A DNA stretch of 42,873 nucleotides, taken from an uncultured Alphaproteobacteria bacterium (GTDB taxonomy: Bacteria > Pseudomonadota > Alphaproteobacteria > CAAHEQ01 > UBA3637). Below are positions 41-35,159 of this stretch, piece after piece. The position numbers and the translations under genes were made by a program. Location: assembly GCA_947629595.1 (NCBI GenBank), contig CANREI010000001.1, positions 1 through 42,873 of the forward strand, in the 5' to 3' direction. Position 1 is the first letter of the stretch; each line of letters starts with the position of its first letter. The notes under the pieces were generated by a model. That model was not told the DNA's origin, ran no database searches, and saw only the letters and a list, made by a program, of their open reading frames with translations.

Positions 41-196
41 AAACGTACGATTTTTGCAACACTTTTTTTTAAAATTTTGAAAAAATTTTTATTTTGGTTG
101 AAAACAATTGATTTTTCGACTGTTTTTGAGTGCTTGATTTTGGCATTTTGAAGGCAATTTTGACCCCCGAATCCGCGTTGCATTAAAGGTACGTTT
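41..196. promoter_or_regulatory. Candidate invertible DNA switch 1 (inverton) upstream of pilin-like lectin gene
   Basis: Arms AAACGTACGATTTTTGCAAC (41-60) and GTTGCATTAAAGGTACGTTT (177-196) are 16/20 reverse-complementary, with exact termini AAACGTAC and GCAAC. They bracket 116 bp of AT-rich DNA ending 37 nt before the ATG at 234. The same module recurs at 29106-29262 and 31446-31601. Confidence 0.6.
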
Positions 197-27972: not shown

Positions 27973-27992
27973 ATGGGCTGACTGTTGAAATT

Positions 27993-28004
27993 TAGCGTTC
28001 GCTA
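27993..28004. repeat. 12-bp palindrome TAGCG-TT-CGCTA (site A of a pair)
   Basis: Perfect half-site dyad around a central TT. The partner at 28136-28147 is identical except that the central dinucleotide is AA. Confidence 0.8.
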
Positions 28005-28135
28005 TTTTTCCATATTATACTATGTCTTTTTGGAAATGCAATCTTTTTTAAGACTTCCGTTTAAAAAAATAGTTTTTTGAACAGATTATTTCATCTTCCG
28101 AAAAACGGTTTTTTATACATTTTTTTGTTGGTATT

Positions 28136-28147
28136 TAGCGAACGCTA
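28136..28147. repeat. 12-bp palindrome TAGCG-AA-CGCTA (site B of a pair)
   Basis: See site A. Lies 70 nt upstream of the recombinase ATG. Confidence 0.8.
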
Positions 28148-28217
28148 TCTTTCAATATCATTTCAGAAAACTATATGACTTCTGTTTCATAAACAAGTTA
28201 AACTAGGAGTTCCAAAA

Positions 28218-28811
28218 ATGACAGTTTATGCTTATATTCGTGTTTCAACCGATCGCCAGAATAACGATAATCAGCGGTTTCAAATTATCAATTACTGCAA
28301 AGAAAAAAATTTAAACATTGATTTGTGGATTGAAGAAATCATTTCAACCGGGCAGGCTTTGAAAAAAAGAAAATTATCGCGTCTTTTAAAAAAAGTAAAG
28401 GAAAACGATATTTTAATAACCTGTGAAATATCCCGCTTGGGAAGAAATCTCTTTGAAGTCATGGAAATTTTATCAACGTGTATGAAAAAAGGGTGTCGGG
28501 TTTGGACCATTAAAGATTGTTATACGCTCGGAAATGATATTCAATCAAAAGTGTTGGCTTTTGCCTTTGCTTTGGCGGCAGAAATTGAAAAACAGCTGAT
28601 ATCGCAACGAACAAAACAATCTTTGGCGCGTCGCAAGGCGGAAGGAAAGCCGATCGGGCGCATGAAAGGGGCTAAAAATAAAACGCACAAATTGGACGGC
28701 AAAGAAGAACAAATTGAAGATTTGTTTAAAAAGGGTGTTCCGATTGCGCAAATTGCCCGTATGATGAAATGTCATCGCGACACGATTTCCCACTTTTTAA
28801 AACCCGTTTAA
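28218..28811 (+). CDS. Serine recombinase / DNA invertase, Mpi-family-like
   Basis: AGGAG RBS. N-terminal YAYIRVSTDRQ (catalytic Ser10), [31 protein letters not shown], and C-terminal HTH (GVPIAQIARMMKCHRDTISHFLK). Size is typical of small invertases at 197 aa. Confidence 0.85.
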   Translation: MTVYAYIRVSTDRQNNDNQRFQIINYCKEKNLNIDLWIEEIISTGQALKKRKLSRLLKKVKENDILITCEISRLGRNLFEVMEILSTCMKKGCRVWTIKDCYTLGNDIQSKVLAFAFALAAEIEKQLISQRTKQSLARRKAEGKPIGRMKGAKNKTHKLDGKEEQIEDLFKKGVPIAQIARMMKCHRDTISHFLKPV

Positions 28812-29025
28812 AGAAATACGGTTTGTTTTTTCAGGTTGTGCGGAAAAAAAATGAGGCTTTGCACCTAAAAACAAATAGAAAAGCTATCATTTCGGCACAC
28901 TCTTTTATTTTCGGCGGGAAGTGCTGTCCCGTGAAACGTGGGACAGCGCGGTGTGTCGAAAATAAGGCGATTCGGTGCAAAACAATAAGTTTGCTGTAAA
29001 CTTTTCCCTCTGTCGGCGGGTGTGG

Positions 29026-29062
29026 GGAGGCAAAATTTAAGCCGCTCCGCTATGGGTCGATA
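29026..29062. repeat. Left copy of a ~37-bp inverted repeat flanking the second pilin-like cassette
   Basis: The reverse complement (TATCGACCCATAGCGGAGCGGCTTAAATTTTGCCTCC) aligns by eye with 31282-31318 (TATCGAAATAGAGCGGTGCGGCTTTAATTTATGCCTC) at roughly 85 percent identity with small gaps. Confidence 0.55.
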
Positions 29063-29105
29063 GAGGAAAAAATTGGTGTTTTTTTTAAGAGCAGTTGCAC
29101 AAATT

Positions 29106-29262
29106 AAACGTACGTTTTTTGCAACACTTTTTTTTGATTTTTTCAAAAAAAATTTATTTGGAGGTGTTTTTAATGCAATATCAACGGGTTATAAAAAGCC
29201 TGTTTCACCAATTTTTGAGGGTATTTTTGCCCCCGAAACCGCGTTGCATTAAAGGTACGTTT
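29106..29262. promoter_or_regulatory. Candidate invertible DNA switch 2 (inverton)
   Basis: Arms AAACGTACGTTTTTTGCAAC (29106-29125) and GTTGCATTAAAGGTACGTTT (29243-29262) are 17/20 complementary. The last ~30 internal nt resemble switch 1. It ends 38 nt before the ATG at 29301 and lies 295 nt downstream of the recombinase gene. Confidence 0.6.
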
Positions 29263-29300
29263 AATTGTATACTATTCGTATAGTGAAAGGGAGTCGGAAA

Positions 29301-29423
29301 ATGACAATGCAATTCAAAAAACAAGTTCAAAATCAAGCACAAGCGGTATATATGCAAAGCAACGAACCGCAAATTGCAGGCGGGGAAGCGGAAAAAAAAT
29401 GCAAATTCGGCAGGACAAAATAA
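29301..29423 (+). other. Out-of-frame 5' leader segment of the second pilin-like gene
   Basis: GGGAG RBS 7 nt before the ATG, as in gene 234. It encodes MTMQFKKQVQNQAQAVYMQSNEPQIAGGEA, homologous to residues 36-62 of the first paralog. It leaves the main frame at the A8 tract 29392-29399 and stops at 29423. Confidence 0.6.
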
Positions 29424-31222
29424 TTGGGAAAACACAAATTCGGCAAGATAAAATCATTGAAAATCAATCACAAAGCGGTAAAATGATGATTAAAAATACA
29501 CAGAACAAAAAAGAAAGCTCAAAACATAAATCAATGCTTTCAATTTACAAGAAAAATATCATTGAAACACACTCTCAAAGTGGCCGTTCCATGATTGAAA
29601 TGCTGGGTGTGTTGGCTATTATTGCCATTTTATCAATCGGAGGGATTGTGGGGTTTCGATTGGCAATGAATTACTATCGAGCATCACAAATTGCCCATGA
29701 AATGAATATGATGCGCACCGATGCGCAAATAAAAATTGCCCAAGGGACGGAAGAGTTAATGCTCGGAGAACCTTATGATCCTGTCAACGATTCCCTCGGA
29801 CATATTCAGTTTAATGATGCGTATCTTGTTGATTTTGATTGTATTTATATGAAAACGGAAATATCAGAACCCGAACCTGCTTTTTGTACCGGTGCCAATG
29901 CTTATTATATAGAATTGCAAAACATTCCCGAAGGTGTTTGTAAACCGCTGGCAAACTTAATTGATAAAATGGATAATGAAATTGCCTTTTACATTAACGG
30001 AAACTCTGTTGATGCGGAAGAGGGAGAAAAAGGCGTTTGCAATGCAGAATTCAATACATTAAGGGTCATCTTCGGTGCCGATTCGGATTCGAACGCCATT
30101 AAATGCGGTGGTGCCGATGACCCCGCTTGTCCAACAGAACTGCCTGTTTGCCTTAACCATATGTGTGTGGAATGCGAAGAAAGTAATGATTGCGGCGAGT
30201 TTGAAGTTTGTGATCGGGAAACGGGAAGATGTATCGATGATTGTACGAAAGGCGCATGTAACAGTGGTGTTTGTGTGGGCGGCGTTTGTAAAGAATGCAA
30301 AAACATGGAAGATTGCGACAACGGTTTAGCATGCATAGACAATCAATGTATGCGTTGCGAAAACGAATCGGATTGCGAAGAAAAACATTGCATAGAAGGT
30401 TCATGTGTTGACTGTACGGAACCGACACCGAAATATAACGCGACAGAAAACAGGTGCGTGGAATGTATAGATAGTGAAGATTGTGAAAATCCGAAACCAT
30501 ATTGTAATCCCACAACAAATACATGCGAACCGTGTGAAAATGATTTACAGTGCGATACAACGCAAAACGAACATTGCCAAGTTTCCACCGGATCGTGTAT
30601 TATATGTGATGTCTATACAGAAGTTTGGGATGAAGAGTTAAAAGATTGTCGTTTGGCAAAATCTTGTAAGGAATTAGATTGCCCGATAGATACATTCTGT
30701 TTAAGTGGCAAGTGTAATGCTCCATGTCCAACCGATGAGGTAATAACAATAGAAGAAGAAGTCTGTAATAGCTTTTTTTGTCGACCAACAAATATTGGTT
30801 TTGTGCAAGGGCAAGTAAATGGAAGAAGCTATTATGGAAACAGATATAGCCTAAACTGGTGGAGTTCTCAGCGATTTTGCCAAGCAGCAGCCCGCGAAGC
30901 AGGTGTAACAAGTGGTCGATTGGTGAGTTGGAGTGATATTAATTGGCAATGTTATAATGATGCTAACAAACCGGATCCAACAAACAAGAAAGATGGATAC
31001 TGCAAAGCAACAAACGATGATTCCGGTAGTGATAATGTGTCGAAAGCAATAACAGATTTGAGAAATATGTATCAATGTACTAGTCAATGTTTTCCATGGC
31101 TGCAAGAGGCATATAGTTCTTGTCGGGCGTATGATGTAAATCTTTTCGACGGATATGTGCGACCCTATTCTTTTGGCGGTAACGGCAGTTATGCTGATTA
31201 TGCTTTATGTGTAGGTAATTGA
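29399..31222 (+). CDS. Modular type IV pilin-like protein paralog with expanded Cys-rich repeats and C-type-lectin-like C-terminus
   Basis: G62|RSMIE-MLGVLAIIAILSIGGIVGF prepilin motif. At least 4-5 repeats of C-x2-C-x3-5-DC-x5-8-C-x5-8-C (for example CVECEESNDCGEFEVCDRETGRCIDDC). C-terminal WWSSQRFC...C...CRAYDV..FDGYVR...YALC. The functional start is uncertain (29399, 29483 or 29534, or 29301 after a +1 slip). Confidence 0.75.
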   Translation: MQIRQDKIIGKTQIRQDKIIENQSQSGKMMIKNTQNKKESSKHKSMLSIYKKNIIETHSQSGRSMIEMLGVLAIIAILSIGGIVGFRLAMNYYRASQIAHEMNMMRTDAQIKIAQGTEELMLGEPYDPVNDSLGHIQFNDAYLVDFDCIYMKTEISEPEPAFCTGANAYYIELQNIPEGVCKPLANLIDKMDNEIAFYINGNSVDAEEGEKGVCNAEFNTLRVIFGADSDSNAIKCGGADDPACPTELPVCLNHMCVECEESNDCGEFEVCDRETGRCIDDCTKGACNSGVCVGGVCKECKNMEDCDNGLACIDNQCMRCENESDCEEKHCIEGSCVDCTEPTPKYNATENRCVECIDSEDCENPKPYCNPTTNTCEPCENDLQCDTTQNEHCQVSTGSCIICDVYTEVWDEELKDCRLAKSCKELDCPIDTFCLSGKCNAPCPTDEVITIEEEVCNSFFCRPTNIGFVQGQVNGRSYYGNRYSLNWWSSQRFCQAAAREAGVTSGRLVSWSDINWQCYNDANKPDPTNKKDGYCKATNDDSGSDNVSKAITDLRNMYQCTSQCFPWLQEAYSSCRAYDVNLFDGYVRPYSFGGNGSYADYALCVGN

Positions 31223-31281
31223 TAATTTGGCTATTTAGAAACATATCAATCTGAAAGAAGCTTCCGAAGTTATAAGGGAGG

Positions 31282-31318
31282 TATCGAAATAGAGCGGTGC
31301 GGCTTTAATTTATGCCTC
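31282..31318. repeat. Right copy of the ~37-bp inverted repeat flanking the second pilin-like cassette
   Basis: See 29026-29062. Lies 60 nt after the stop of the pilin-like gene. Confidence 0.55.
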
Positions 31319-31445
31319 TTATATGGAATTGCCGAGTATGTCGTTGGAAAAGTTTTTTGAAAAAAGAGATAACGGCAAACATAACAGCATGAAACAAGTG
31401 CAGCTGAAAATGTTTAAAATTTAAAATTCAGATTTTGTCTTAAAA

Positions 31446-31601
31446 AAACGTACGATTTTTGCAACACTTTTTTTTAAAATTTTGAAAAAATTTTTTACTC
31501 AAGTGTAATTTTTTGATTTTTAAAAATTTTTTTTACTTTTTCTTTCAGTGGTTGCAAGGGTCTGAAAAATGCAAAAAAAGCGTTGCATTAAAGGTACGTT
31601 T
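31446..31601. promoter_or_regulatory. Candidate invertible DNA switch 3 (inverton) upstream of the GIY-YIG gene pair
   Basis: Arms AAACGTACGATTTTTGCAAC (31446-31465) and GTTGCATTAAAGGTACGTTT (31582-31601). The first ~35 internal nt are identical to switch 1. Contains a plus-strand TTGAAA-16-TGTAAT promoter-like pair. Ends 56 nt before the ATG at 31658. Confidence 0.6.
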
Positions 31602-34943: not shown

Positions 34944-35159
34944 GGCCCAATAGACACTCTTGCTTTACACAAGAGGAATACATTATGCCGTTAATTCAAA
35001 AAATTGTCAAGCACTTTTTTCGAAAAATAATTTAATTTGACGGTTTATTAACTTTTTTAACAAGTAATTCAATGAATTATATTATAAAATCAAAGAAGGC
35101 GCTTAAAAAACGTATTCTTTTGAATAAAATGCCGGAACAAGTGTTTTTGCGGCGTTTTT

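Follow-up and report, generated by a model that had tools for sequence, protein, structure and literature searches.

A probable Mpi-type invertible promoter module upstream of a pilin-like gene, one of at least 85 similar modules in an uncultured gut alphaproteobacterium

Invertible promoters under the control of a master invertase are best known from Bacteroides. In Bacteroides fragilis, a single serine invertase, Mpi, flips 13 regions, including 7 capsular-polysaccharide promoters (PMC4747536, PMC8375218). The repeat published for this enzyme is ARACGTTCGTN, in the form in which PMC8375218 cites it. Another system with many switches is that of Mycoplasma penetrans, where the mpl (P35) lipoproteins are encoded by 38 genes, most of them with an invertible promoter of their own (Horino et al. 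2003, via PMC2268961). As far as that second-hand account goes, the likeness to the locus described here lies in a small genome, dozens of paralogous surface-protein genes, each with its own short invertible promoter, and independent switching. The candidate recombinases there are tyrosine (Xer-like) enzymes, and neither the repeats nor the gene family nor the phylum is related.

The Hin, Gin, Cin and Pin invertases (hix and gix sites) are alike in that a dimer acts on imperfect palindromes, the crossover lies in the central 2 bp and the sites are inverted; Gin is also the nearest structure. These systems have segments of ~1–3 kb, one site pair per element, a Fis-bound enhancer and an asymmetric overlap dinucleotide. 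Here, the segment is ~140 bp and the TA centre is symmetric. The fimS switch of E. coli is acted on by the tyrosine recombinases FimB and FimE, carries the whole promoter and is a single locus. It has in common with our case that a short segment bounded by inverted repeats, upstream of a pilus gene, sets ON or OFF; here, the genes are pilin-like and the loci are many. No account of such a system in Alphaproteobacteria turned up in a literature search.

The window, i.e. the whole stretch of DNA that was analysed (42,873 nt), holds three modules, at 41–196, 29106–29262 and 31446–31601. The middle one, a stretch of 157 bp, is switch 2. It and its surroundings have the following features:

27985–28155, no strand: separate invertible segment upstream of the invertase gene, with arms TTTAGCGTTCGCTA / TTTAGCGAACGCTA (TTTAGCG-TT/AA-CGCTA)
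28218–28811, plus strand: Mpi-family serine DNA invertase, 197 aa, with the catalytic Ser in YIRVSTDRQ and a C-terminal HTH
~28900–28966 and 29002–29071, both strands genome-wide: dispersed REP-like hairpin repeats, with >60 and ~25 copies, respectively, by BLAST of the genome
29106–29125, plus strand: left arm, L-type, AAACGTACGTTTTTTGCAAC; outer 8 bp AAACGTAC, dyad centre TA at 29111–29112
29126–29242, no strand: predicted invertible interior, 117 bp, from the family alignment; at most 94% identity (median 75%) to the other 84 modules
29126–29159, minus strand: interior L-end, minus-strand AAATAAATTTTTTTTGAAAAAATCAAAAAAAAGT, an UP-element-like A/T tract abutting the arm's TTGCAA
29229–29242, plus strand: interior R-end, GC-rich block GCCCCCGAAACCGC, now upstream of the putative -35; ACCCCCGAATCCGC is conserved across modules
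29243–29262, plus strand: right arm, R-type, GTTGCATTAAAGGTACGTTT; -35-like TTGCAT at 29244–29249; 73 identical copies in the genome
29268–29273, plus strand: fixed -10-like hexamer TATACT beyond the end of the invertible segment, spaced 18 nt from the TTGCAT in the arm
29289–29293, plus strand: RBS GGGAG, with 7 nt between it and the ATG (29301); part of the conserved flank consensus GAAAGGGAGTCGAAAAATGAC
29301–29423, plus strand: leader reading frame, which ends prematurely after an A8 tract (29392–29399)
29399–31222, plus strand: pilin-like, Cys-rich surface-protein ORF, 607 aa, with the prepilin-type N-terminus GRSMIEMLGVLAIIAIL

Switch 2 had been described in a sequence-only reading of the same DNA, and most of that description was borne out. 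The two arms are complementary at 17/20 positions, with mismatches at arm positions 9, 13 and 14, and the left arm carries the 12-bp palindrome AAACGTACGTTT at 29106–29117; both can be read from the sequence directly. The right arm is the same in all three modules of the window (177–196, 29243–29262 and 31582–31601). The left arms at 41–60 and 31446–31465 show a single difference from that of switch 2, in that position 10 of the arm is A and not T. The left arm of switch 2 begins 295 nt past the recombinase stop (28811), and the pilin-like gene downstream has an RBS-supported ATG at 29301, 38 nt beyond the end of the right arm. The perfect palindrome, which that reading had linked to a dimer-bound crossover site, is present in switch 2 but is a minority form: 16 left arms have T and 68 have A at position 10, so perfection is not required.

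With a repeat finder, the inverted repeat of switch 2 extends to 31 nt at 81% (29102–29132 and 29236–29266). Matches to the right arm with ≤3 mismatches numbered 4 in the window (0.03 expected), and matches to the degenerate arm numbered 6 (0.34 expected). For the whole genome, there were 110 arm matches vs 1 for the reversed control. The 295-nt spacer between the invertase gene and switch 2 is filled by the REP-like hairpin repeats, the copies of which lie mostly beside other modules. An Rfam search of 28800–29300 returned no known RNAs.

The arms are similar to the published Mpi repeat in the form cited in PMC8375218. The arm core, AAACGTACGT, is one base away from ARACGTTCGTN and has the same ACG-NN-CG shape. 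Arms start with AAACGTACGTT, AAACGTACGAT or AAACGTACCTT, and in the left arm of switch 2, nine of the first ten bases agree with ARACGTTCGT; the central dinucleotide differs, being TA (symmetric) here and TT in the cited repeat. Further likenesses are the recombinase, a small serine enzyme above the cut-off of the same NCBIfam equivalog model, surface structures as targets and one enzyme for many dispersed short regions, which here would be the 28218–28811 invertase acting on 85 modules. The two systems differ in the host, which is alphaproteobacterial here, in the number of sites (at least 85 in 1.34 Mb vs 13 in ~5 Mb) and in the targets (pilin-like protein genes vs polysaccharide operons). 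They also differ in the promoter, which is apparently split here, with the -10 outside the segment, and lies wholly inside the segment in Mpi. By these features, the system largely belongs to the B. fragilis Mpi system. It departs from it in the host phylum, the copy number, the target family, the symmetric TA centre and the apparently split promoter.

The neighbouring recombinase had been called a serine recombinase, and the profile searches agree. Its product matches Pfam Resolvase (E=5.8e-31) and HTH_38, and it scores 283 bits against NCBIfam NF009949 (master DNA invertase Mpi family), the equivalog cut-off of which is 272; the alignment spans residues 3–195. Two paralogues (C144 and C29) are below this cut-off. 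The nearest solved structure is that of the Gin invertase (4m6f, E=6.7e-12), and the protein aligns also to gamma-delta resolvase. The best homologues outside the genus are from Bacteroidales MAGs (55–57% identity), plus one MAG labelled Clostridia. Mpi-like paralogues with 45–58% identity occur in 20/20 sampled genomes of the genus, and Mpi-like recombinases are absent from all 16 other alphaproteobacterial families sampled. The window itself holds an alpha-type two-piece tmRNA, and MAGs from rabbit gut with the label uncultured Alphaproteobacteria are the nearest genomes.

Orthologues of the invertase with ≥93% identity were found only in the genome of the window (G000), in G011 (98%) and in G017 (93%), all of which bear arms. 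Because of this co-occurrence, we assign the arms to the 28218–28811 enzyme, which would serve them rather than the C144 and C29 paralogues. As a side observation, the paralogue on C144, which at 263 bits narrowly misses the cut-off, has an inverted-repeat pair in front of it, ATACATAAATCCCCGTTTAT / ATAAACGGGGGTTTATGTAT, with ~120 bp between the two repeats (C144 ~690–850, L009). This pair may be a third switch type that controls that paralogue.

The segment at 27985–28155 has an arm type that is unique to this site in the genome. It was reversed in two of four contigs from other samples (L013 and L014), with colinear flanks. It contains a complete promoter, AAAAAAGA-TTGCAT-N16-TATAAT, which points away from the invertase gene in the window. 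If this promoter is the invertase's own, the invertase would be mostly off in the present population, and this would fit the uniform orientations seen. With this promoter segment directed away from the gene, inversion may be an infrequent event in the population.

The assembly of G000 comprises 1.34 Mb in 151 contigs, with 41.5% GC, and is 77% complete. Across the whole assembly, 183 arms gave 85 pairs of 155–164 bp on 54 contigs. Given the completeness of 77%, 85 modules is a lower bound, and the density is at least one switch per 16 kb. The modules can be aligned over their full length, and we oriented them by the interior: the end with the A/T tract is the L-end, and the GC-rich end (ACCCCCGAATCCGC) is the R-end. 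A pilin-like gene lies directly downstream in 72 of the 85 modules. It is found at the R-end only in 68, at the L-end only in three (C20:15529, C20:16112 and C28:7404) and on both sides in one (C5:15634), which is located between two divergent short-pilin genes. Of the L-end-proximal loci, two are short (major-type) pilins, one is a large adhesin-like gene that runs divergently from one of these pilins, and the last is one side of the C5:15634 module. A few modules precede genes other than pilin-like ones. Neighbouring modules are often opposite in direction, and for 20 of the 85, the nearest contig end is less than 500 bp away. Of the 41 related genomes examined, four have arms, namely G000, G011, G015 (77% complete) and G017.

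Some modules depart from the usual form. The module between two pilins (C5:15634–15789, L035) has a -10 of its own on each flank (TATACT and TATAAT); its flipping should toggle between the two genes. Its orientation is unchanged in G011 and in one other sample (L050). Variant modules with two L-type, two R-type or mixed arms are found at C45:1824, C100:1989, C117:2462, C5:3996 and C36:5005. Exchange in the core could not give rise to such variants (LL, RR or G at position 9), so gene conversion or point mutation seems the likelier source. At C28:7213–7224, a solo core AAACGTACGTTT lies between a gene-side-type flank (TATAAT, with an ORF start ~42 nt off) and a distal-type flank. Excision of a module would leave a junction of this kind, and it fits a symmetric TA overlap that permits occasional deletion.

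The proteins encoded downstream of the modules have the N-terminus GRSM[VI]EMLGVLAII in common. For the 607-aa ORF behind switch 2, both profiles stayed below threshold: N_methyl PF07963 at E=0.03 (14.4 vs 21.2 bits) and TIGR02532 at 12.7 vs 16.3 bits. By eye, the G-RSMIE motif plus a hydrophobic helix can be recognized. Genes for a prepilin peptidase and for T2SSE-type ATPases lie elsewhere in the genome. The equivalent leader is in frame in the paralogue C58:4274, and the A8 tract that precedes the premature end of the leader at switch 2 is also present in another sample (L028). The tract could add slipped-strand phase variation as a second layer, or the leader could simply be decaying.

Reversed modules were found in two kinds of comparison. 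At C20:16112, the distal and gene-side flanks are colinear with those of the paralogous locus C100:1989 (84% and 86%) and with those of switch 2 (78% and 85%), and the module is reversed in both cases. The other comparison is between samples. The short-pilin locus C20:15529, which has the L-end beside the gene, differs from its counterpart L053 (ERZ27249325) by a reversed module (91.6%), while the distal flank is identical at 34/34 positions (100%) and the leader plus gene at 95%; L055 is partly alike.

In all flipped loci, the arm that adjoins the gene is an intact L-type arm. This means that arm positions 9–14 move with the interior and that the exchange takes place in the outer AAACGTAC. 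As these 8 bp hold the TA of ACG-TA-CG, the mapping supports the earlier proposal of a crossover centred on TA. Such a placement is what a serine recombinase dimer cutting the central dinucleotide would produce. Hybrid arms, proposed by the sequence-only reading as the diagnostic of the crossover point, turned out to be unsuitable: positions 9–14 lie inside the crossover and travel with the segment, and the flipped loci keep intact L and R arms. Hybrid arms are therefore not expected, and the informative junctions are those between arm and flank. A flipped switch 2 would carry the junctions ...CACAAATTAAACGTACCTTTAATGCAACGCGG... and ...AAAAAAGTGTTGCAAAAAACGTACGTTTAATTGTATACT..., and the diagnostic joins would be CACAAATTAAACGTAC to CTTTAATGCAACGCGG and AAAAAAGTGTTGCAAAAAACGTACGTTT to AATTGTATACT.

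The four instances of switch 2 that were seen all share one orientation: the window, L012 (left junction), L028 (whole module) and the orthologous locus of G011. Its left junction, in either state, had no match in the scanned JGI metagenome contigs. Arms missing from orthologous loci that keep the recombinase had been named beforehand as evidence against a switch; the sister species G011 has the arms. The switch is kept there, and the downstream pilin-like gene and its leader are intact. In G017, a different gene follows the recombinase, and the arms are elsewhere. Comparing G000 with contigs from other samples, the orientation was the same for switch 2 (L012 and L028), switch 3 (L029–L031) and the two-pilin toggle (L050). 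It differed only at the short-pilin locus (L053/L055) and at the segment upstream of the invertase gene (L013 and L014). Inversion is thus seen in members of the family, and switch 2 is very probably an inverton of the Mpi type.

The gene-side flanks of the modules follow the consensus GTTGCAT-TAAAGGTACGTTTATTT-TATGCT...GGGAG...ATG. A TAnnnT hexamer 16–18 nt from the arm's TTGCAW is present in 63 of 69 R-side pilin flanks and in 4/4 L-side pilin flanks. It is also present in 7/7 R-side flanks of unrelated genes, where the hexamers vary (TATAAT, TACAAT and TAGTAT). Only 8 of 78 gene-less flanks have it, and the common hexamers there are GAGGAC, TGTGCA and GATGCA. These counts indicate that the -10 is fixed on the gene side and that the arm gives the -35 either way. 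No -35/-10 pair was found inside the interior, so the segment does not hold a complete internal promoter. This bears on how the switch acts, not on the family membership of the recombinase.

Housekeeping promoters (tRNA and tuf) on several contigs follow the pattern A5–7 tract, GTGC or similar, TTGACA, N17 and -10, which would be useful for promoter annotation in this lineage. Among 12 high-scoring tRNA promoters, 8 have an A5–7 tract, 3–4 nt, TTGACA or TTGCAA, 17 nt and a -10. The tRNA-tuf promoter in the window near 35020 (34990–35030, minus strand) reads AAAAAAGTGC-TTGACA-N17-CATAAT. The L-end with its arm, AAAAAAAAGTG-TTGCAA, follows the tRNA/tuf pattern, and the R-end with its arm, CCGAAACCGCG-TTGCAT, departs from it. 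In UP elements, the alpha subunit of the polymerase contacts A-tracts at -38 to -59. As only the L-end has an A-tract, the L-end beside the gene is rather probably the ON state, and the present, majority orientation of switch 2 would be OFF or low. As both orientations have a -35-like hexamer, some expression may leak from the OFF state, or the polarity may be opposite. The GC-rich end is conserved as well as the A/T end, for which the OFF reading offers no account. A sigma-54 promoter was also considered for the interiors, many of which have TGGCA-N9-GC facing the gene. It was rejected, as no Sigma54_DBD/rpoN was found in 13 genomes of the genus (G000 and 12 others, most of them ≥90% complete). 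Switch 2 is without the sigma-54-like motif.

In a census of junctions, the numbers of R-arms vs L-ends on a '-10'-type flank were 65/8 in G000, 78/3 in G011 and 18/1 in G015, with the second figure setting an upper limit to the number of flipped loci. The eight of G000 comprise four L-end-proximal pilin flanks (C20:15529, C20:16112, C28:7404 and the L side of C5:15634); the other four include C100:1989, which has LL arms in standard orientation, and distal flanks that match the pattern loosely (C17, C65 and C104). For G017, the result of 0/4 is no test of the census, because the listed arms are almost all L-type and the R-arm pattern finds nothing. The G011 orthologue of the C20 short pilin is likewise L-end-proximal. 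The census fits a state with most genes OFF and few ON.

We consider it likely that switch 2 is an Mpi-type inverton, one of at least 85 near-identical ~156-bp modules, with a split promoter that is presently OFF. The modules most likely serve to switch pilin-like surface-protein genes individually. We infer that this copy still flips, that the 28218–28811 enzyme acts on it and where exactly it is cleaved. In the mechanism we propose, this serine invertase would bind the two imperfectly palindromic sites of switch 2 and cut at the dyad centre, i.e. the TA in ACG-TA-CG. The ~140 bp between the two centres would be reversed, arm positions 9–20 included. The -10 (TATACT, 29268–29273), the RBS and the ATG would stay fixed outside the module. 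The arm would supply the -35 both ways, as TTGCAT at present and as TTGCAA once flipped. Flipping would then swap the DNA upstream of the -35 from the GC-rich block (OFF or low) to AAAAAAAAGTG plus phased A/T tracts (ON).

The polarity could be the opposite one, with the GC-rich end beside the gene as ON, its block as an activator site or promoter part, and flipping as silencing. The R-arm TTGCAT with TATGCT or TATACT at 17–18 nt is itself promoter-like, the complete promoter ahead of the invertase gene has TTGCAT as its -35, conservation of the GC-rich end is strong, and the present orientation is the majority one. We nevertheless regard this as unlikely. The GC-rich end is without the A-tract seen at 8/12 strong tRNA promoters, no interior -35/-10 pair faces that way, and sigma-54 is excluded by the lack of rpoN in 13 genomes. 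Moreover, ~70 large paralogous surface proteins and 5–6 major-pilin paralogues would all be on together. Considerably less probable still is a fixed copy of a promoter cassette, inherited by gene duplication, with the arms as relics or operator sites. Both arms of switch 2 match the consensus arms of loci found flipped, the right arm is the same as 72 other copies, and the module is conserved at the orthologous locus of the sister species, all of which speaks against fixation. The finding of 4/4 instances in one orientation could be taken in its favour, as could the frameshifted leader downstream and the invertase promoter segment facing away from its gene; however, one orientation in consensus assemblies is expected if most switches are OFF.

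Shufflon-like rearrangements between modules would move whole genes to active promoter ends. The geometry would allow this, as the pilin-like gene (29263–31445) is bracketed by two mutually inverted arms, the right one of switch 2 and the left one of switch 3, the core is common to all modules, neighbours often alternate, and the symmetric TA overlap gives the sites no polarity. The solo site resembles a deletion product, and the assembly is highly fragmented at modules, 20 of the 85 being so close to a contig end. Both observed flips, however, are of single modules with colinear flanks, and the gene order from switch 2 to switch 3 is the same in the other sample (L028/L031), which makes such rearrangements very improbable as the explanation. 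The least probable reading is that of a MITE inserted before genes in either orientation, without site-specific inversion. We rejected it because target-site duplications are missing, the flanks being without direct repeats, and because C20:15529 and L053 differ by a precise in-place reversal bounded by the arm cores at an orthologous locus, not by presence vs absence. The high copy number, the terminal inverted repeats and the uniform length are what a MITE would have, but the -10 always lies at a fixed gene-side distance, and a dedicated serine invertase co-occurs with the arms.

The preferred reading of switch 2 as one Mpi-type inverton among many can be extended to the whole organism, and we offer this extension tentatively, as a possibility that we hold to be a little less likely than not. 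Half-promoters, each with an A-tract and a -35 in the recombination site, would flip against fixed -10s at ~85–110 switches, driven by an Mpi invertase derived from Bacteroidales. A gut alphaproteobacterium of ~1.7 Mb would thereby show few of ~70 pilin-like adhesins at a time, and the promoter of the invertase, being itself invertible, would add another level of control. If the half-promoter reading is true, this is, to our knowledge, the densest set of invertible promoters described. The modules explain the poor genome assembly in this lineage. An enzyme of the Mpi family and a near-same recombination core are found in an uncultured gut alphaproteobacterium, at far higher density and together with a very large pilin-like family. 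If the promoter is indeed split, the switch would be of a compact design, in which one and the same site serves for recombination and as the -35, and the activating element upstream of it is all that switches sides. In addition, we see here a concrete case in which the passage of phase-variation machinery from one gut phylum to another can be tested.
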